Below, one piece after another: positions 681 through 51,968 of a DNA stretch of 64,000 nt. How positions within the stretch are numbered: position 1 is the first letter of the stretch; the number at the start of each line of letters is the position of its first letter. A model generated the notes under the pieces. The model was given only the letters and a program-made list of their open reading frames with translations. It ran no database searches and was not told where the DNA came from. This stretch comes from an uncultured Sphingomonas sp. GTDB lineage: Bacteria; Pseudomonadota; Alphaproteobacteria; Sphingomonadales; Sphingomonadaceae. The position numbers and the translations under genes are program-made. The stretch lies in assembly GCF_913776045.1 (NCBI RefSeq), contig NZ_CAJYOI010000006.1. One strand, written 5' to 3'.

Positions 681-2024
681 TCAACGCTTGGCGGTTACCG
701 TCGGTGCCTTGGCGAGCAGCGCGCCACCCAGGCGACCGATCGTCTTCAGCGCGTAATCGAGCTGGAAGTCCTCGACGCCTGCCTTCTTCAGCGCCTCAGG
801 CGTCGCGGTGAAGCGGGGGTCGTCGATCGTGTCTTCCTCCAGCGCCTTATTGTCGACCTTGGCGGTGTTGATCAGGTGGCGGCGCAGGTCGGCCTCACGG
901 AAGACGGGCCGCGACTTGCGGTCGGGGTCGGTCAGCTGCGGCACGGCGATGTCGGGTTCGATCCCACCTTCCTGCACCGACCGGCCCGACGGCGTGTAGT
1001 AGCGCGCCGTCGTCAGGCGCAGCGCCGAGTTCTCGCTGAGCGGCAGCAAGGTCTGGACCGACCCCTTGCCGAAGCTGCGCTCACCCATCACCAGCGCGCG
1101 GTGATGGTCCTGCAGTGCGCCCGCGACGATCTCCGAGGCCGACGCGGTGCCGGCGTCGGTCAGGACGATGACCGGCAGGCCCTTCGCCAGGTCGCCGGGC
1201 TTGGCGTAATAGCGTTCGATATCGGTCTTTGCCCGCCCACGCTGCGACACGATCTCGCCGTGGTCGAGGAACACGTCGCTGACCTCGATCGCCTGGGTCA
1301 GCAGCCCGCCGCCATTGTCGCGCAGGTCGACGACATAGCCGAGCGGCGCATGGCCCAGCGACTTTTCGATCGCCATGACCGCGGCGCGCGTGTCGGCGCC
1401 GGTGTTGGCGCTGAAGGTATTGATGTTGATGATGCCGATGCCGTTCTTTACTTCCCACTTCACCGGCTTCTGTACGATGACTTCGCGGACCAGGGTGACG
1501 TCGATCGGCTTGTCGCGACCTGGGCGGATCAGGGTGATCGACACCTTGCTGCCCGGCGGCCCACGCATGCCCTGGATCGCTTCGTCCAGCGATTGGCCGT
1601 AGATCAACGTGCCGTTGATGTGGGTGATATAGTCGCCGGCCTTGATGCCGGCGCGGTACGCCGGGGTGTCCTCGGTCGGGGCGATGACCTTGACCGCGCC
1701 GTCCTCCATGCTGACGGTAAGGCCCAGACCGCCGTAATTGCCTTCGGTCGCGATGCGCATGTTGTCGAAGTCGAGCGCGTCGACATAGCTCGAATGCGGA
1801 TCGAGCGCCGCCAGCATGCCCTGGATCGCACCCTTCATCAACGTCTTGTCGTCGACCTTGTCGACATATTGCGCCTTCACCTGATTGTAGATGTCCATGA
1901 ACGTGTCGAGTTCACGGTAGGCGCCGGTATCGACCTGCGCGAGTGCGGCGGTCGTCGCGGGGACCAGCGCGATGGTGCCGAGAAGGGCGGCGGCCTGAAG
2001 GGCGGAAGCGAAGGGACGCGGCAT
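681..2024 (-). CDS. ctpA: S41 family C-terminal processing protease (signal peptide, PDZ, protease)
   Basis: Motifs LDPHSSY, GLGL, DLRDNGGGLL, TASASEIVAGALQD, SFGKGSVQ. Confidence 0.95.
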   Translation of the reverse strand: MPRPFASALQAAALLGTIALVPATTAALAQVDTGAYRELDTFMDIYNQVKAQYVDKVDDKTLMKGAIQGMLAALDPHSSYVDALDFDNMRIATEGNYGGLGLTVSMEDGAVKVIAPTEDTPAYRAGIKAGDYITHINGTLIYGQSLDEAIQGMRGPPGSKVSITLIRPGRDKPIDVTLVREVIVQKPVKWEVKNGIGIININTFSANTGADTRAAVMAIEKSLGHAPLGYVVDLRDNGGGLLTQAIEVSDVFLDHGEIVSQRGRAKTDIERYYAKPGDLAKGLPVIVLTDAGTASASEIVAGALQDHHRALVMGERSFGKGSVQTLLPLSENSALRLTTARYYTPSGRSVQEGGIEPDIAVPQLTDPDRKSRPVFREADLRRHLINTAKVDNKALEEDTIDDPRFTATPEALKKAGVEDFQLDYALKTIGRLGGALLAKAPTVTAKR

Positions 2025-2116
2025 CGATGTCCTGACGAATGGCAAGTCTGACGGGCAAGATACAGGTTTGCGAGACGCTTAGCAAAGCGCGCATGTCGAT
2101 GAACCGCGCCTGAGCG

Positions 2117-3232
2117 TCACCCGATCAACTGCGCCAGATCGACCGCCACGCCGCGGCGGCGCAACTCGACGCCGACGCGCGGCGCCTCGGCCATCGCGGC
2201 GCGCCCGATCGGCTCGCCCATCGCCACCGCCGTGCCGGGCGTCACATCGGCGGCGTCGAGACCGGTGAGCGCGCTCGACCAGCCACCCCCGTGATCGATG
2301 ATGACGACCGTGCCGTAGTCGCGGAAACGACGGGCGAAGACGATGCGCCCCTTGGCCGGCGCGACGACCGGGGCACCCGCCGCGACCGCGAATCTCAGGC
2401 CGCGCGAGCGTACGCCGGTGTCGGACAGTTCGCCCAAGCCTTCCACGATGCGACCGCGAACAGGCAGGCGATAGGGCGGGACGGCAAAGGCCGGGGCGGG
2501 CGACGTGTCGCCTGGGCGGGGCAGCGGGCCGCCAAGGTTGGCGAGCGACGTGCGGACGTCGGCCGCCGCGGCGCTTTCGGCCATCATGCCCGCCAGATCG
2601 CGCGCGCGTTCGCCGAGCGCGATCGCCTGCTCGCTTGTCGTTCCGCCGGTGCCGGCGCCGCGGCCGCGTTCCTCTGCCTGCAACCGGGCGAGCATGAGAC
2701 GGCCCGACTGGAGCCGGGCGTTCGCCTCGGCCAGCGCGGCGGCGGCTTCGGCCGCTTCGGCGCGGAGAGCGCGAGTCTGAGCGAGTTCGAGCCGCAGCGC
2801 CTGCGTCCGCGCATGGATGACGGGCAGCATAGTGCCGAGCAGGGCGCGGGCGTGGACGATGTCGCCGGTAGATCCCGGCTGCATGACCGCAAGCACAGCG
2901 GGGCGTCGCGAGAGCGATTGGACGGCGGCGACGAGCTTCGCGGCGGGTTGCTGACGCTCGGCGAGGCGCGCGCCTTCCGCTGCCAGCCGCTGATCGGTCA
3001 GAGCGATGCGCGCCTTCGATGCGGCGATGGCGGCTTCTGCAGCACGGATCCTGGCCTCGATCGCGGCCAAGCGCAGGCGGCTGCGGCCGGCGGCGTCGGG
3101 TTCGGCATCGGCCTGTCGCTCGAGCGCGGCGGCACGATCCGCCGCCGCCGCGGCTATGCGATCGGCGCGTGGCGCATCGACCGCGCCCAGCAGCATCACG
3201 GCCGCGACTGCGAAGGCGAGCCTAGCCCTCAC
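2117..3232 (-). CDS. envC: Murein hydrolase activator EnvC family (coiled coil + degenerate M23/LytM)
   Basis: Signal peptide, Ala-rich coiled coil, C-terminal APAKGRIVFA..YGTVVIIDHGGG; upstream of ctpA. Confidence 0.8.
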   Translation of the reverse strand: MRARLAFAVAAVMLLGAVDAPRADRIAAAAADRAAALERQADAEPDAAGRSRLRLAAIEARIRAAEAAIAASKARIALTDQRLAAEGARLAERQQPAAKLVAAVQSLSRRPAVLAVMQPGSTGDIVHARALLGTMLPVIHARTQALRLELAQTRALRAEAAEAAAALAEANARLQSGRLMLARLQAEERGRGAGTGGTTSEQAIALGERARDLAGMMAESAAAADVRTSLANLGGPLPRPGDTSPAPAFAVPPYRLPVRGRIVEGLGELSDTGVRSRGLRFAVAAGAPVVAPAKGRIVFARRFRDYGTVVIIDHGGGWSSALTGLDAADVTPGTAVAMGEPIGRAAMAEAPRVGVELRRRGVAVDLAQLIG

Positions 3233-3641
3233 GGTGGTAGGGGTGCCCCGACAGGATCGCGGTCGCGCGCCACAATTGCTCGGCCAGCATCGCCCGCGCC
3301 AGCATATGCGGCCAAGTCAGCCGCCCGAAGGAGAGCAGCATGTCGGCCTGCGCGCGCTGGGCGTCGTCGAAACCGTCTGCGGCACCGATCAGGAAACGAC
3401 ATTCGCGCACGCCATTGTCGCGCCACCGCCCGATCCTTTGGGCGAAGGCGACCGATCCGGGCGTCTCCCCCGTTTCGTCGAGCATCACGATCTTCGCGCC
3501 GGCGGGGTCCGGCATCTTGCCGCCGATGTCGGGCAGCTCGGTGACCTTCACTGGCCAGCCGATCCGCTTCAGATAGCGATCGACCAGCTCCCCTTCCGGA
3601 CTCCGGCCGATCCGCCCGCGCGCGACGATGTGGAGGAGCAT
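3222..3641 (-). CDS. rlmH: 23S rRNA (pseudouridine1915-N3)-methyltransferase
   Basis: SPOUT motifs FLIGAADG, LSFGRLTWPHMLARAMLAEQLWRA..ILSGHPYHR; start ATG 3641 overlaps upstream TAA. Confidence 0.95.
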   Translation of the reverse strand: MLLHIVARGRIGRSPEGELVDRYLKRIGWPVKVTELPDIGGKMPDPAGAKIVMLDETGETPGSVAFAQRIGRWRDNGVRECRFLIGAADGFDDAQRAQADMLLSFGRLTWPHMLARAMLAEQLWRATAILSGHPYHREG

Positions 3642-4060
3642 TAGCGCAACTCGCCGCGTCGGTAAGGTCGGTGACGTCCGATGGCCCACGCGGCGTCGTG
3701 CGGCAGGCGCGTTTCGAATCGCCGATATTCGTCCGCCGCCTCGCGATCTCCGGCATCGCCCGCACGCCTTAGCCAGATCCGATATTGCGCGAGCCGACCG
3801 CGGTTGAACGCGTCGATCGCGCGGTTGTAAGCTGCGGTGGAACTGCCGCGCCGCCAGGCAAGCCTGTACATGCGATCTGCGTTGAATTGCGACGTCGCGC
3901 TTTCATCATCAGCGAGCAAAGTTAGCGCCTCAGGCATGTGGGCGTGGGCGAGACGACGGATTACTGGTCGCCAAAACCCGTTCGCCCGCCCCTCATAAAT
4001 CGCGATTGCCCGACGATAGGCACGATCCTGCCACGCATGTCTCTCGGGCTGGGCCAGCAA
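3641..4060 (-). CDS. Hypothetical protein with Sel1-like repeat
   Basis: 139-aa ORF, AGGAGG RBS before TTG, stop coupled to rlmH start; YRIWLRRAGDAGDREAA resembles Sel1 (W.R.AA..GD..A). Confidence 0.65.
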   Translation of the reverse strand: MLAQPERHAWQDRAYRRAIAIYEGRANGFWRPVIRRLAHAHMPEALTLLADDESATSQFNADRMYRLAWRRGSSTAAYNRAIDAFNRGRLAQYRIWLRRAGDAGDREAADEYRRFETRLPHDAAWAIGRHRPYRRGELR

Positions 4061-4069
4061 CGAGCCTCC

Positions 4070-4462
4070 TCAGTTCAGCTCAGCTGCCGGCGTGTCGAAG
4101 CCCCACATGCGTTCCAGATTGTAGAAGGTGCGCACTTCGGGGCGGAACAGGTGGATGATGACGTCGCCGGCGTCGATCAGCACCCAGTCGGCGTTCGGCA
4201 GGCCTTCGATCCGTGCGGTGCGGCGGAACTCGGTCTTGATCTTCTCGGCCAGCTTGTTCGCCATCGACGCGACCTGGCGGGTCGAGCGGCCCGAAGCGAC
4301 GACCATATAGTCCGCGATCGACGATTTGCCGGCTAGCGGAATCGAGACGGTATCGACCGCCTGATCGTCCTCCAGGCTCGACAGGATCAATGCATGCAAC
4401 GCCTCCGCGCTGTCGGCATCGGCCGACGGGCTGTGGGGGGCGGCGGTGGGGGTAGTGGCCAA
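4070..4462 (-). CDS. rsfS: Ribosome silencing factor
   Basis: IADYMVVASGRSTRQV, WVLIDAGDVIIHLFRPEVRTFYNLERMW; likely TTG start after GGAG. Confidence 0.95.
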   Translation of the reverse strand: MATTPTAAPHSPSADADSAEALHALILSSLEDDQAVDTVSIPLAGKSSIADYMVVASGRSTRQVASMANKLAEKIKTEFRRTARIEGLPNADWVLIDAGDVIIHLFRPEVRTFYNLERMWGFDTPAAELN

Positions 4463-4464
4463 GA

Positions 4465-5097
4465 TTACTCCAGTGTCGGATTGGGGCGCCATGCGGGCGA
4501 TGTGGGATGCGCATAGGCCAGATGCCAGTCCGGCGAGGCGGCGCGCACCGCGGTTGCGGAGGTCGGATCGGGGCGGAAGCGCAAGAGCACGAGCGCCGGC
4601 GGACTCCATTCGGTCCAGTGTTTCGCGTGTGACGTCGGTCGCCGGAAGCGCCTGAGCCACGCCATCGCCGGACCCGCGAGGGCATCGCCATCATACCCCG
4701 GACGCGCGATGACCGCAATCGGCATCTCCCGCGCGATCGCCCGCCACGCCCGCCAGCGGTGGAATCCGGCGAGATTATCGGCGCCCATCAGCCAGATGAA
4801 GTCGGTGTGCGGATAGCGCCGCTGGAGCGCCCGCAGTGTGTCGATCGTGTAGCGCGTGCCGAGCTTCGCCTCGATCGCGGTCGCCCGGATGGGGGCGTGC
4901 CGCGTCATCCTGCGGGCGGAGGCCAGCCGCGCGGCTAACGGCGCCATATCGGTCGCGCCGGCCTTCAGAGGGTTACCGGGCGACACCAGCCACCACGCCT
5001 CATCCAGCCCCAGCGCGCGAACGGCGGCGAGCGTGATCGCCCGGTGCCCACGGTGGGCGGGGTTGAACGACCCGCCGAGCAGGCCGATGCGGGTCAT
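4465..5097 (-). CDS. nadD: Nicotinate-nucleotide adenylyltransferase
   Basis: GLLGGSFNPAHRGH, WLVSPGNPLK, WLMGADNL. Confidence 0.95.
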   Translation of the reverse strand: MTRIGLLGGSFNPAHRGHRAITLAAVRALGLDEAWWLVSPGNPLKAGATDMAPLAARLASARRMTRHAPIRATAIEAKLGTRYTIDTLRALQRRYPHTDFIWLMGADNLAGFHRWRAWRAIAREMPIAVIARPGYDGDALAGPAMAWLRRFRRPTSHAKHWTEWSPPALVLLRFRPDPTSATAVRAASPDWHLAYAHPTSPAWRPNPTLE

Positions 5098-10020: not shown

Positions 10021-10116
10021 CGTCATCCCCGCGCAGGCGGGGATCAATTCTGGCTGACCTAACGGAAAGAGCCGCCCGCTCCCCATCAATTGATCCCGGC
10101 CTTCGCGGGGATGACG
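10021..10116. repeat. REP-like inverted repeat element (family A)
   Basis: 29-nt arms CGTCATCCCCGCGCAGGCGGGGATCAATT / AATTGATCCCGGCCTTCGCGGGGATGACG (2 mismatches), each self-palindromic, 38-nt spacer, between convergent genes. Confidence 0.85.
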
Positions 10117-22735: not shown

Positions 22736-22850
22736 GCCCTCTCCCCGCTCGCGGGGAGAGGGATGGGGAGAGGGGCGGTGTCGCGAGCGGGCGGTCTCGA
22801 TGAGACACTTGCCCCTACCCCAACCCTCTTTCCACAAGCGGTTAGAGGGC
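22736..22850. repeat. REP-like inverted repeat element (family B)
   Basis: Arms GCCCTCTCCCCGCTCGCGGGGAGAGGGATGGGGAGAGGGGC / GCCCCTACCCCAACCCTCTTTCCACAAGCGGTTAGAGGGC, right arm decayed. Confidence 0.75.
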
Positions 22851-31408: not shown

Positions 31409-31441
31409 CCGTTCGCCCTTCGACAGGCTTAGGGCGAACGG
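31409..31441. repeat. Short palindrome, probably a collapsed REP-like element; may terminate gltB
   Basis: CCGTTCGCCCT-tcgacaggctt-AGGGCGAACGG, 9 nt after gltB stop. Confidence 0.6.
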
Positions 31442-31450
31442 GGGGAAGAG

Positions 31451-41052: not shown

Positions 41053-42339
41053 ATGTCCGACGCGTCCCGTCGATCGAATCTGCCGCCGCTCGCGCTGCAT
41101 GTGCCCGAGCCCAAATTCCGTCCCGGCGACACGGTGGATTTCACCGAAGTCACCGTTCCGCCGGTCGAGGCGTCGCGCCGGCCGGATACGGCGGATGCGG
41201 CGAACGGCTTCCACGATCTCGCCTTCGGCCTGGTCCGCGTGCTCAACATGGACGGCACCGCCGGCGGCCAGTGGGATCCGCGCATCTCGCCCGACCTGAA
41301 ACGCCAGATGCTGCGCAACATGGCGCTGACCCGCGCGTTCGACGAACGCATGTTCCGTGCGCAGCGCCAGGGCAAGACGAGCTTCTACATGAAGTCGCTG
41401 GGCGAGGAGGCGGTGTCGGTGGGTGCCGCCGCGGCACTCGCGTCAGACGACATGGTGTTTCCGTCGTACCGCCAGCAGGGCATCCTCATCTCGCGTGGCT
41501 GCCCGCTGGTCGACATGATGAACCAGATCTATTCGAACCGCGGCGACAAGCTGCAGGGCAAGCAGCTGCCGATCATGTATTCGGAGAAGGGCTACAGCTT
41601 CTTCTCGATCTCCGGCAATCTGACGACGCAGTACCCGCAGGCGGTTGGCTGGGCGATGGCGAGCGCGGCGAAGGGCGACACGCGGATCGCGGCGACCTGG
41701 TGCGGCGAAGGATCGACTGCCGAAGGTGATTTCCACTCCGCCTGCACCTTCGCCAGCGTGTACCGCGCGCCGGTCATCTTTAACGTCGTCAACAACCAGT
41801 GGGCGATTTCGAGCTTTTCAGGGTTCGCCGGCGCCGAAGCGACGACATTCGCGGCGCGCGCGATCGGTTATGGCATCGCCGGTATAAGGGTGGACGGCAA
41901 CGACGTGCTGGCGGTCTATGCCGCGACGCTGTGGGCGGCCGAGCGCGCGCGGACCAACGCGGGGCCGACGTTGATCGAGCATTTCACCTACCGCGCCGAA
42001 GGGCATTCGACCTCGGACGATCCGGGCCAGTACCGCTCGGAGGGTGAACCCAATGCTTGGCCGCTGGGTGATCCGATCAAGCGGCTGAAGGCGCATCTGA
42101 TCGCGTGTCGCGAATGGGACGAAGACCGCCACGAGGCGATGGACCGCGAAGTCGCCGACCAGGTGAAGACCGCGCAGAAGGAGGCCGAGAAGAACGGCAT
42201 CCTCGGCCACGGCCTGCATCAGCCGCTCGATTCGCTGTTCGACGGCGTGTTCGAGGAGATGCCCTGGCACCTGCGCGAGCAGCAGGCGCAGATGATTGCC
42301 GAGGAAGAAGCCTCGGGCCGTCCGTGGGCGAGGAAATGA
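41053..42339 (+). CDS. bkdA1: Branched-chain 2-oxo acid dehydrogenase E1 alpha
   Basis: [24 protein letters not shown] (TPP), [12 protein letters not shown]. Confidence 0.95.
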
Positions 42340-43406
42340 CGATGGCCGACACCGAAACCATGACCGCCGACGTCACCGGCGAAGGCGGCGCCACGACCCG
42401 CATGAACATGATCCAGGCGATCAACAGCGCCATGGACGTGATGATGGACCGCGACGACGACATCGTCGTGATGGGCGAGGACGTCGGCTATTTCGGCGGC
42501 GTGTTCCGCGCGACCGCGGGGCTGCAGGCGAAATATGGCAAGACGCGCGTGTTCGACACGCCGATCACCGAGATTGGGATTATCGGCGTGTCGATCGGCA
42601 TGGGCGCCTATGGCCTGCGCCCCGTGCCCGAAATCCAGTTCGCCGATTACATCTACCCCGCGCTCGACCAGCTGGTCAGCGAGGCCGCGCGCCTGCGCTA
42701 TCGCTCGGCCGGCGAATTCACCGCGCCGATCACCGTGCGCAGCCCGTACGGCGGCGGCATCTTCGGCGGGCAGACGCACTCGCAGTCGCCCGAGGGCATC
42801 TTCACCCATGTCTCGGGCATCAAGACGGTCATCCCGTCGACGCCGTACGACGCGAAGGGGCTGCTGATCGCCGCGATCGAGGACAACGATCCCGTCCTGT
42901 TCCTCGAACCCAAGCGCATCTACAACGGCCCGTTCAACGGCCATTGGGATCGCCCGGCGTCGAACTGGTCGACGCATCCTGCGGGCGAGGTTCCGACCGG
43001 CTATTACCGCGTCGATCTGGGCAAGGCGAACGTCGTGCGCCCCGGCAACGACCTGACCATCCTCGCCTATGGCACCATGGTCCATGTCGTGATGGCGAGC
43101 GTCGAGGAAGCCGGCGTCGATGCCGAGGTGATCGACCTGCGCACGCTGGTACCGCTCGACATCGAGACGATCGAGGCGTCGGTGAAGAAGACCGGCCGTT
43201 GCATGATCGTCCACGAAGCGACCCGCACCGGCGGCTTCGGCGCGGAACTGTCCGCGCTGGTGCAGGAACGCTGCTTCCACCACCTGGAAGCGCCGATCGA
43301 GCGCGTCACCGGCTTCGACACGCCATACCCGCACAGCCTGGAATGGGCATATTTCCCCGGGCCCGTCCGCATCGGACAGGCGCTCGCCAAGATCATGAAG
43401 GACTAA
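42336..43406 (+). CDS. bkdA2: Branched-chain 2-oxo acid dehydrogenase E1 beta
   Basis: MGEDVGYFGGVFRAT, FDTPITE, HSQSPE, WAYFPGP. Confidence 0.95.
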   Translation: MTMADTETMTADVTGEGGATTRMNMIQAINSAMDVMMDRDDDIVVMGEDVGYFGGVFRATAGLQAKYGKTRVFDTPITEIGIIGVSIGMGAYGLRPVPEIQFADYIYPALDQLVSEAARLRYRSAGEFTAPITVRSPYGGGIFGGQTHSQSPEGIFTHVSGIKTVIPSTPYDAKGLLIAAIEDNDPVLFLEPKRIYNGPFNGHWDRPASNWSTHPAGEVPTGYYRVDLGKANVVRPGNDLTILAYGTMVHVVMASVEEAGVDAEVIDLRTLVPLDIETIEASVKKTGRCMIVHEATRTGGFGAELSALVQERCFHHLEAPIERVTGFDTPYPHSLEWAYFPGPVRIGQALAKIMKD

Positions 43407-43410
43407 AGCG

Positions 43411-44751
43411 ATGGCCCGCTTCGAATTCCGCCTGCCCGACATCGGCGAAGGCATCGCCGAGGCTGAGATCGTCGCCTGGCACGTCGCAGTCGGCGACCGT
43501 GTCGAGGAGGACCAGGGCCTCGCCGACATGATGACCGACAAGGCGACCGTCGAGATGGAATCGCCGGTGTCGGGCACCGTCATCGCGCTGGCGGGCGAAG
43601 TCGGCGATCAGGTGCCGATCGGGTCGACGTTGGTGGTGATCGAGACGGAAGGCGAGGCTTCGGCCGAGCCTGAAGCAGCACCGGTGTCGGTCAAGGTTGA
43701 AGAGCAGATCGAGGCCGAGAATCCGGGTGTCGAAGAGGTGTTGGAAACACCGGCTCCGCAGCCCGTCGGTGCCCCGGCGAAGGCCGGGGCCCAGTCGCGG
43801 GACGCTGATGACGGCGCGGCGTCCTCTCCGACAGGGGACAGTGGTACTGGACCTCGGCCTTCGCAGGGGAACGGGAGTGGCGCCCACCATGCTCCGGTCC
43901 TTGCCTCGCCGGCCGTCCGCGCGCGCGCCAAGGATCTCGGCGTCGACCTGTCTCAGGTCCAGCACGACGGCCAGCACATCCGCCACGCCGATCTCGACGC
44001 CTATCTGCGCTACTCCGGCGGCCAGGGCTATCACGCCCCCCACGCCTCCCGTGCGCGCGACGACGTGCCGGTGAAGGTCATCGGCATGCGCCGCCGCATC
44101 GCCGAGAACATGGCGGCGTCGAAGCGTCAGATCCCGCACTTCACCTATGTCGACGAAATCGACGTGACGGCGCTTGAAGACATGCGCGCGGACCTGAATG
44201 CCAACCGCGGCAACCGCCCGAAGCTGACGATGCTGCCGTTCCTGATCGTCGCGATCTGCCGCACGCTGCCCGACTTTCCGATGCTCAATGCGCGCTACGA
44301 CGACGAAGCGGGCGTCGTGACGCGCCACGGCCGCGTGCATCTGGGCATGGCGACGCAGACGGATGCGGGGCTGATGGTCCCGGTCATCCGCGATGCGCAG
44401 GACAAGAACGTCTGGCAGTTGGCGAGCGAGATCGGTCGCCTGGCCGAGGCCGCGCGTACCGGCAAGGCGAAGTCGGAGGAACTGTCGGGCTCCACGCTGA
44501 CCGTCACTTCGCTCGGGCCCCTGGGCGGTATCGCGACCACCCCGGTCATCAACCGCCCCGAAGTCGCGATCATCGGCCCGAACAAGATCGTCGAACGCCC
44601 GGTCTTCCGCGGCGACGACATCGTGCGCGCGAAGCTGATGAACCTGTCGATCAGCTGCGACCACCGCGTCGTCGACGGCTGGGACGCGGCAAGCTACGTT
44701 CAGGCCGTGCGCAAGCTGCTCGAGACGCCGGTCCTGCTGTTCGCCGACTAA
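43411..44751 (+). CDS. bkdB: BCKDH E2 dihydrolipoamide acyltransferase
   Basis: Lipoyl MTDKATVE, E3-binding ASPAVRARA, catalytic SCDHRVVDG. Confidence 0.95.
   Translation: MARFEFRLPDIGEGIAEAEIVAWHVAVGDRVEEDQGLADMMTDKATVEMESPVSGTVIALAGEVGDQVPIGSTLVVIETEGEASAEPEAAPVSVKVEEQIEAENPGVEEVLETPAPQPVGAPAKAGAQSRDADDGAASSPTGDSGTGPRPSQGNGSGAHHAPVLASPAVRARAKDLGVDLSQVQHDGQHIRHADLDAYLRYSGGQGYHAPHASRARDDVPVKVIGMRRRIAENMAASKRQIPHFTYVDEIDVTALEDMRADLNANRGNRPKLTMLPFLIVAICRTLPDFPMLNARYDDEAGVVTRHGRVHLGMATQTDAGLMVPVIRDAQDKNVWQLASEIGRLAEAARTGKAKSEELSGSTLTVTSLGPLGGIATTPVINRPEVAIIGPNKIVERPVFRGDDIVRAKLMNLSISCDHRVVDGWDAASYVQAVRKLLETPVLLFAD
43769..43872. repeat. REP-like inverted repeat element inserted in frame in bkdB
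   Basis: GTGCCCCGGCGAAGGCCGGGGCCCAGT ... ACTGGACCTCGGCCTTCGCAGGGGAAC (about 23/27 complementary), 50-nt spacer. Confidence 0.75.
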
Positions 44752-49804: not shown

Positions 49805-50106
49805 GTGCGGCAGCGCGCACGCTGCGCGCTGACTCGCACGAGCACGGCCGGCGAACGAAGTTCGGCCGACGGCGTGGGCTTTGCCCACGCCTTTTTTACG
49901 CCGTGCGGCGGCGCGCACGCTGCGCGCCGACTCGCACAAGATCGGCCGGCGGGTGTAACCCGGCCGACGGCGTGGGCTTTGCCCACGCCTTTTTTTATCC
50001 GGCGCTTGGGCAGAATCAGGGCGACGGCAAAGCCGCCGACGTCGGCCGGGCTATGCCCGCCGGCCGTGCTGGCGCGAGTCTGCCGGCGGCACGCCGGCTG
50101 CCGCGC
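49805..50106. repeat. Three copies of an 87-nt three-hairpin element (two tandem on +, one inverted)
   Basis: Units 49805-49891(+), 49903-49989(+), 50020-50106(-); + units end in GGCGTGGGC-TTT-GCCCACGCC-T6/T7. Confidence 0.85.
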
Positions 50107-50689
50107 TGCGCAGCAAAAACACTGCATGCTCCGCCCGAAAATTCGCCGCCGCCGCACTGGTCGCCACACCGCGATTCAAAAACCACGCCCCCTCCACCAC
50201 GATCCCCCGCGTGTCCACGAACGCCCGGAAGTCGTCGATCGTCACATGGTGAATATTCGGCGTCTCATACCACTCCAGCGGCAGCAGCTTCGTCACCGGC
50301 ATCCGCCCGCCCCACAAAAGCGACGCGCGCACCCGCCAGTGCGCGAAGTTGGGGAACGACACGAAGGCCCGCGTGCCGATCCGCAGCAACTGCTCCAGCA
50401 CGACATGCGGCCGCATCGTCGTCTGCAACGTCTGGCTGAGGATCGCGTAATCGAACGCCGCATCGGGGTAATCGGCCAGATCGGTGTTGGCATCGCCCTG
50501 CATCACCGACAGCCCACGCTCCAATGCGGTGGCGACGTCATCGGCGTTGAGTTCCAGTCCCCGCGCATCGCAGCCGCGTTCGTCGCGCAGTGCCGCCATC
50601 AGGGCACCGTCCCCGCAGCCGACGTCTAGGATGCGCGAGCCGGCTGCAACGTTCGCCGCGATGATCGCGAGGTCGGGACGCAGGTTCAT
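50051..50689 (-). CDS. metW: Methionine biosynthesis protein MetW
   Basis: [40 protein letters not shown]. Confidence 0.93.
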
Positions 50690-51830: not shown

Positions 51831-51968
51831 AATCCTCCCCGCTCGTGGAGAGTAGGACCGCCGCCGAAGGCGGTGGGGGAGGGGGCGTGCCGCAAAGGTT
51901 ACCGCTCGCGGAGATCCCCCTCCACCAGCCTGCGGCTGGTCCCCCTCCCCGTGCCGGGGGAGGAGATT
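51831..51968. repeat. REP-like inverted repeat element (family C)
   Basis: AATCCTCCCC...GGAGGGGG left arm / CCCCCTCCACCAGCCTGCGGCTGGTCCCCCTCCCCGTGCCGGGGGAGGAGATT right arm. Confidence 0.7.

Follow-up and report, generated by a model that had tools for sequence, protein, structure and literature searches.

A dispersed REP dimer lies in frame in the linker-encoding DNA of a predicted branched-chain-type dehydrogenase E2 of Sphingomonas

Introduction

Within a 64,000-nucleotide (nt) stretch of DNA from an uncultured Sphingomonas sp. (contig NZ_CAJYOI010000006.1 of assembly GCF_913776045.1; the whole stretch is hereafter called the window), a gene for an E2 (dihydrolipoyl acyltransferase) of a predicted branched-chain-type 2-oxo-acid dehydrogenase carries a long palindrome in the part that encodes the linker between the lipoyl and E3-binding domains. 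The locus raises the question of whether this palindrome is a member of a repeat family that came to be read as protein or a by-product of the codons of a G+C-rich linker, and whether its hairpin or its peptide is of use to the cell. It is near certain that the element is a dimer of repetitive extragenic palindromic (REP) units from a dispersed, mostly intergenic family, named A1 here, and the reading that best accounts for its history, that of an in-frame, tolerated passenger now serving as linker of the E2, is judged to be probable. That the passenger has no function of its own is held with less assurance than the identity of the element.

A REP Dimer of a Dispersed Family

A preliminary description of the window, made from the sequence alone, had noted a 104-nt element with REP-like arms at 43769-43872, lying between the two domains of the E2 without disruption of the frame, related to an intergenic element at 10021 and presumably part of a repeat family, and each of these points has been borne out. 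A repeat finder recovers two arms at 43769-43795 and 43846-43872 (27 nt, 85% complementary, 50-nt spacer), in which CCCCGGCGAAGGCCGGGG at 43772-43789 is answered at 43852-43869 by CCTCGGCCTTCGCAGGGG, its reverse complement with two mismatches, and the reading frame is intact across them with Pfam domains on both sides (Table 1). The build is REPIN-like, with two inverted REPs arranged around a short spacer in one hairpin and 29 base pairs in the consensus structure, and the RNA fold of the element is predicted at -76.5 kcal/mol (z = -3.5 against shuffles). The direct target-site duplication of a miniature inverted-repeat transposable element is seen neither around the intergenic copies nor around the E2 copy. 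A CGTC at 43764-43767, considered as a family tag, is a coincidence, as it lies 3 nt off the stem and is missing in the orthologues L082 and L084.

When the element was compared by short-word BLAST with 80 orthologous Sphingomonadales loci (numbered with the prefix L) whose E2 genes had been masked, many other genomes gave exact matches of 22-28 nt to the left arm, typically as paired inverted copies ~95 nt apart. Eleven intergenic copies from other Sphingomonas genomes align gap-free and end to end with the E2 element; intergenic copies are mostly 94-98 nt long, six of them exactly 98 nt, and all five A1 copies within E2 genes are exactly 98 nt. A covariance model, R1, built from the 11 intergenic copies alone with the E2 sequence left out, finds its best match in the window at 43767-43874, with all 108 positions of the model covered (54.7 bits, E = 2e-10), and its second in the intergenic dimer at 10021-10116 (47.7 bits, E about 9e-9), which represents a different sub-family. 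Over 1.55 Mb of Sphingomonadales loci, R1 retrieves 57 distinct copies at E <= 1e-4, and a search of Rfam gave sub-threshold chance matches only.

The abundance of the element in the source samples was read from four plant-metagenome runs (X1-X4) that hold most of the stretch and appear to be DNA runs. Summed contig depth over 43773-43793 reaches 315-679 against a baseline of 10-27, a 15-55 fold rise, and several contigs share only the left arm and then diverge, with at least five different flanks per run in X1-X3; the mutated right arm gives no such spike. Because the rise in depth comes together with several different flanks, the left arm is multi-copy in the source samples. The contigs of X1-X4 yielded no joint, no indel and no element-free allele, and no RNA run is listed among the runs matching the stretch, three weak holders being of unclear type.

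The outermost 3-5 nt of the intergenic A1 copies differ between copies and are nevertheless inverted-complementary within each copy (CACCA/TGGTG, CCCCT/AGGGG and CCGTA/TACGG, as at L024:3011-3118, L029:13702-13808 and L017:7430-7523). Such flanks could mean that the dimers arise via inverted duplication of one unit plus its flank.

Table 1. Coordinates of the REP dimer, its host gene and related features (positions in the window unless a locus is named).
Feature	Position	Strand	Description
REP dimer core, family A1 (name given here)	43772..43869	+	98 nt, encodes A121-G153, APAKAGAQSRDADDGAASSPTGDSGTGPRPSQG
Left REP unit	43771..43793	+	stem GCCCCGGC, loop GAAG, stem GCCGGGGC, tail CCA; 0/23 differences from consensus
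Spacer between REP units	43794..43847	+	54 nt, varies among family members, encodes SRDADDGAASSPTGDSGT
Right REP unit, inverted, decayed	43848..43870	+	TGG tail, ACCTCGGC CTTC GCAGGGGA; 3/23 differences from consensus
E2 (dihydrolipoyl acyltransferase), predicted branched-chain-type	43411..44751	+	intact open reading frame, 446 amino acids (aa)
Inter-domain linker, lipoyl to E3-binding	43642..43896	+	aa 78-162; 85 residues, 33 supplied by repeat
E1alpha gene	41053-42339		directly upstream of E1beta/E2 in the window operon
E1beta gene	about 42336-43406		directly upstream of E2
Intergenic REP dimer, different sub-family	10021..10116		terminal CGTC tags (CGTCATCCCCGCGCAGGCGGGGATCAA ... ATGACG); arms 29 nt, 93% complementary
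dnaE2 repeat	L002:2102-2242	-	gene 1218-5051; peptides of the dnaE2 repeats in L002, L010, L020 and L025 are e.g. GGGGAPRR..GGGPPPRAGEDLG, GEGLGEG..

Reading Frame and Host Protein

All frames of the G+C-rich A1 arms are free of stop codons. Of 66 readings of the intergenic copies, taken by frame and orientation, 40 stay open from end to end, and no observed stop falls in an arm. The arms can be read as PGEGRGP / WAPAFAG, PAKAGAQ / GPRPSPG or RRRPGPS / LGPGLRRG, and every A1 copy in an E2 uses the PAKAGAQ...GPRPSPG reading, which is rich in Ala, Pro and Gly and resembles a natural E2 linker. Since the arms are free of stops and the peptide is much like such a linker, an insertion here would have been tolerated.

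The protein is a 2-oxo-acid dehydrogenase E2 by its composition, with a lipoyl domain (PF00364 Biotin_lipoyl, aa 5-77), a peripheral-subunit domain (PF02817 E3_binding, 163-184) and a catalytic acyltransferase domain (PF00198 2-oxoacid_dh, 219-444) in one chain, and the residues of all three are conserved across 121 orthologues. The linker is the sole hypervariable, non-alignable block in the orthologue alignments. In an AlphaFold model computed from a 34-sequence alignment, residues 81-161 lack secondary structure and have a predicted local distance difference test (pLDDT) score of ~28-32; as the model is poor throughout (mean pLDDT 40.9), this counts as weak evidence of disorder. The gene stands in an E1alpha-E1beta-E2 operon, its orthologues are labelled 2-oxoisovalerate dehydrogenase or branched-chain E2 in public sources, and it scores under the cut-offs of all NCBIfam equivalogs for pyruvate dehydrogenase (PDH) and oxoglutarate dehydrogenase (OGDH) E2. 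The E2 is accepted here as a predicted bkdB-type enzyme from this naming and from the N-terminal domain of E1alpha seen in relatives.

Repeat-Type Linkers in Orthologues

When linkers are assigned to classes by peptide pattern, a repeat-type peptide occurs in 108 of the 121 nearest orthologues (89%) and in 153 of 198 overall. These peptides fall into at least six classes, two of which come from one DNA family: A1 (PAKAGAQ..GPRPSPG) and A2 (PAQAGAQ..GLPPAREH), a short-spacer variant that R1 also matches. The others are B (PLPLAGGAGGG..PPASGRGE), C (ILPGTGRGT..GGGGG..PLHHP..GPPPRAGE), D (SPLRGEGLGEG..PLPxGERE), E (VRAEPVEA..FDKL or STSSGR) and F (VSSEVETP..VSTSLDTNG). Of 79 tabulated linkers, 41 match DNA outside the E2 genes of other loci in a two-arm pattern, and the plain Ala/Pro linkers of L004, L008, L034, L038, L055 and L060, which serve as a control for composition, show no such match. 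Inverted-repeat scores follow the same division, with class medians of 11-25 in the repeat classes against 7 in plain linkers.

The insertion had been expected to appear in orthologues as a clean indel of ~35 aa, and it does not: the 120 nearest homologues are all 420-464 aa long, most carry a different repeat at this place, and genes that are 94% identical show a swapped linker. The related estimate that the element adds about 35 aa stands for what it encodes, 33 aa (A121-G153), and fails for the net gain, which is ~22 aa or less. Linkers that lack a repeat have a median length of 62 aa, as against 85 aa for those with A1 and 70-82 aa for the remaining classes, so that element-free linkers are 9-23 aa shorter than repeat-bearing ones. 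Among close relatives the orthologue alignments contain no empty site, and from them neither insertion boundaries nor a target duplication can be read; the fetched loci hold no paralogous PDH or OGDH E2 genes.

History of the Linker

A tree of 81 rows built without the linker groups the window sequence with four others, all of them A1 bearers (SH-aLRT 95), and a second A1 clade of ten members lies across a 99-supported branch. Parsimony requires 36 class changes on the 81 rows, between a minimum of 7 and a shuffled-label mean of 49.9. That all A1 bearers form one clade is disfavoured by the approximately unbiased test (p = 0.035), for which the group was named after the tree had been seen.

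Individual relatives show what such changes consist of. The isolate genome L081 (GCA_016937575), 96% identical, carries A1 at the same place with a better preserved right arm, and it lacks two of the three consensus differences of the right unit in the window, one synonymous and one Pro-to-Gln. In Sphingomonas sp. Leaf33 (88% identical) the linker holds another sub-family, whose 24-nt arms are perfect and which begins at the same left boundary; this sub-family is also intergenic in another genome, while S. floccifaciens (87% identical) has an unrelated class C element in its linker. In a clade with 91-94% identity over the rest of the gene, a plain linker in one member stands beside class D or E in others; the stretch that lies between ...GAGGAAGT and AAGGTYCTCGCC... 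has been swapped as a whole and not simply interrupted. As whole segments have been swapped, the class changes are not a count of insertion events, and would comprise insertions, losses of older Ala/Pro sequence and, probably, whole-linker exchange by recombination between the conserved flanks.

These observations suggest a sequence of steps in which a palindromic repeat of two inverted REP units would have come to lie in the tether-encoding DNA of an E2, where its stop-free arms and Ala/Pro/Gly-rich reading may have allowed it to be tolerated, translated and turned into what is now linker material. The A1 copy would then have been inherited vertically in the small clade of the window, where its arms are slowly decaying. 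The linker alleles of other Sphingomonas change often between close relatives, presumably through new insertions, loss of the Ala/Pro stretch and probable whole-linker recombination, and we infer the order of insertion, deletion and recombination from the comparison of present-day linkers.

Passenger or Function

Three other explanations of the palindrome can be set against that of a tolerated passenger. Ala/Pro-rich coding DNA is partly self-complementary, and a palindrome could in principle emerge from the Ala, Pro and Gly codons (GCC, CCG and GGC) of a G+C-rich linker by chance, a notion to which the plain motif count in the window lends some colour, being only weakly above expectation (3 matches against 0.54 expected, equalled by 4 of 100 shuffles). 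Chance origin is nevertheless refuted by the full-length R1 match at E = 2e-10, the gap-free 98-nt alignment with intergenic copies, the spike in read depth on the left arm and the plain Ala/Pro linkers, with their lack of matches and low inverted-repeat scores, and its probability is negligible. A second explanation takes the hairpin to be kept for a function at the level of nucleic acid, whether ribosome pausing between the lipoyl and E3-binding domains, stability or processing of bkd mRNA, or binding of a protein to DNA; any strong hairpin would suffice, and different repeats would have been recruited convergently. The very stable predicted hairpin (-76.5 kcal/mol, z = -3.5), the presence of some palindromic element at this place in 89% of the nearest orthologues, the perfect arms of some copies (e.g., 24 nt in L082) and the roles that REPs are thought in the literature to play as RNA elements after genes all speak for it. 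The state of the arms speaks against it, as the five A1 copies in E2 genes have 4-5 mismatches per 26 positions compared with 0-3 in ten intergenic copies (an eleventh was read out of register), and as both changes acquired by the window copy in its right arm since the split from L081, the synonymous and the Pro-to-Gln one, break pairs. Such decay is expected from drift under weak protein-level constraint and not from a selected hairpin. Plain Ala/Pro linkers free of inverted repeats moreover serve several lineages well, the arms match genome-wide families exactly and do not co-vary on their own, and no Rfam family matches, which together make a nucleic-acid function quite improbable.

The third explanation places selection on the peptide, with the repeats retained because they lengthen or tune the swinging arm and supply a needed length of linker. 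The 9-23 aa by which repeat linkers exceed plain ones, the confinement of total protein length to 420-464 aa despite swapped content and the use of only the Ala/Pro/Gly-rich frame in all A1 copies would fit this account. The last of these, however, would follow equally well if frames with stops, or those reading WAPAFAG or RRRPGP, had been purged, and length spreads over 20-40 aa within the larger classes, close relatives with 94% identical genes have plain linkers of 58-62 aa, and the sequence encoded by the spacer is not conserved between clades. Selection of the added peptide is thus regarded as unlikely, and a REP dimer carried in frame as a tolerated passenger, now serving as linker, remains the probable account.

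Several points weigh against the passenger account and should be set beside it. The occupancy of this linker in 89% of the nearest orthologues could reflect selection or targeting instead of mere tolerance. Translation of the element is deduced from the intact frame, the copy number in the window's own genome rests on metagenome depth and may include related strains, and the tree, in which 10 inner branches out of 77 are starred, is resolved only in part.

A broader and more speculative proposal, for which the odds are well short of even, sees in this linker of the branched-chain E2 of Sphingomonas a possible hotspot of renewal, in which selfish REP dimers would have become the main raw material of the tether. 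It draws on the at least six classes present in 89% of the nearest orthologues and on differences in class between genes with 94% identity. Such a hotspot could result from targeted insertion, the landing site being either REP-like DNA of Ala/Pro codons or a REP already in place, from cassette-like recombination of whole linkers across the conserved ENPGVEE and LASPAVR flanks, or from selection that favours a hairpin or the length of the linker.

A Second Host Gene and Other Repeats

A wider screen with all linker repeats found in-frame class C and D repeats in dnaE2, which encodes an error-prone polymerase, in a loop of the HHH_6 region in L002, L010, L020 and L025. Compared with six repeat-free genomes (L084, L004, L006, L009, L014 and L086), the dnaE2 repeat is a clean indel, and in L011 all but one residue of the repeat is missing. 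The case fits a general filter by which repeats are retained in permissive loops.

Other candidate coding hosts of family A were rejected, as those near imuB are located upstream of the part of the gene that bears the domains and six other open reading frames that span elements have no Pfam domains; spanning frames of this kind are common in the G+C-rich DNA of these loci. Public calls of the imuB-like gene range from 613 to 747 aa, and open frames extend from it in the upstream direction over palindromic repeats; the calls in L085 (2400-4340) and L086 (3748-5991) include the repeat, and the Pfam IMS domain begins well after it. The N-terminal extensions of imuB-like genes over repeats are probably not coding.

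Repeats of several of these families also occur elsewhere in the window. A weak R1 match (25.5 bits) at 49954-50055 falls inside a long inverted repeat (49892-50117), a separate structured repeat located after ssb. An intergenic class C copy lies at 51855-51959 between metX-like and amine-oxidase-like genes, and the same repeat forms the E2 linker (ILPETGRGT..PLHHP..GPPPRAGE) in L024, L027, L033 and L015. Intergenic repeat arms of class D (22737-22776) and class E (31414-31444, just downstream of a gltB-like gene) match E2 linkers of other genomes at 87-96% identity.

The operon itself varies upstream of the E2. An alpha/beta-hydrolase (Hydrolase_4) gene lies between E1alpha and E1beta in L081 (8075-8749), L082 (8006-8857), L084 (8082-8936) and L086 (8101-8943), and is absent from this position in the window, where the two genes meet at 42339/42336, and in L085, L088 and L089. 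Other loci have a family A repeat at the equivalent position, ~1.1 kb upstream of the E2 start.

Comparison With Known Systems

Repeat DNA that is usually called extragenic would here have been turned into protein sequence in a free-living soil and plant bacterium, beyond Rickettsia, the evidence for the repeat being a statistical test, and the disordered tether of a swinging-arm enzyme would be a place where this conversion has happened repeatedly. Such a history would explain why the Sphingomonas E2 linkers are unalignable and why peptides such as PAKAGAQ, GPRPSPG, PLHHP..GPPPRAGE and GEGLGEG recur in unrelated proteins. It also provides a natural series of near-identical enzymes, with plain and at least six repeat-type linker classes, for probing the importance of linker sequence and length in E2. 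No new mechanism is revealed by the case, and its closest precedents are found among REPs, REPINs and the palindromic elements of Rickettsia.

The CGTC-1 REPs are commonest in alpha-proteobacteria, including sphingomonads, and occur mostly as inverted dimers; they are defined by an 8-bp stem, a 4-nt loop, a short unpaired tail near CCA, a CGTC, TGTC or CCTC tag, and A/T as the first two bases of the stem (Di Nocera, De Gregorio and Rocco, 2013, BMC Genomics 14:522, PMC3733652). A1 shares with them the 8-bp stem, 4-nt loop and CCA tail in both units, the right one being inverted and decayed, and a dispersed, multi-copy, mostly intergenic distribution as inverted dimers. Unlike CGTC-1, A1 has none of the three tags beside its stem and has G/C instead of A/T at the first stem positions; the E2 copy is flanked by GGT and intergenic A1 copies by CACCA or CCCCT. 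The window element at 10021-10116 carries the tags (CGTCAT...ATGACG) and is a textbook case. A1 is therefore best described as CGTC-1-like and not as a proven member of CGTC-1.

REPINs are REP doublets that form hairpins, are mobilised by RAYT transposases and are extragenic by definition (Bertels and Rainey, 2011, PMC3116915). The A1 dimer resembles them in its two inverted REPs, short spacer and single long hairpin and in its many near-identical, mostly intergenic copies, and differs from them in that the E2 copy is coding. Rickettsia palindromic elements (RPEs) are palindromic, selfish repeats found in frame in housekeeping genes (Ogata et al., 2000, Science 290:347; Ogata et al., 2002, Genome Res 12:808; as cited in PMC10969869), where they are translated and occupy sites compatible with the protein fold (PMC10969869). 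The E2 element is likewise a member of a palindromic family lying in frame in a conserved gene with the domains spared, although its host is free-living, with a large, G+C-rich genome, and A1 measures 98 nt compared with about 150 nt given there for RPE-1. The parallel with these elements, drawn when the palindrome was first noticed, is an apt one, as CGTC-1, whose unit build A1 shares, has been equated with RPE-6 of R. conorii (PMC3733652), and it is through this equation in the literature only that A1 is tied to the RPEs.

In-frame REPs are themselves already known. One frame of CGTC-1 reads (V/A)xPAKAG(I/A), and intragenic dimers encode 20-30 aa; dnaE2 is named among the REP-decorated genes, and a supplementary table lists REP units in the PDH E2 (VAPAQAGA, aa 180-187) and PDH E1 of Sphingopyxis alaskensis, in E2o and E2p of Opitutus terrae, and in dnaE2 (PMC3733652). 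With REPs recorded there in both 2-oxo-acid dehydrogenase E2 and dnaE2, the present case is another instance of a described phenomenon. It differs from those cases in its branched-chain-type host, and neither linkers nor their repeated refilling by several families are discussed there. What appears to be new, as far as the literature was searched, is that one and the same linker is filled in most species of a genus by several repeat families, with turnover between near-identical genes.

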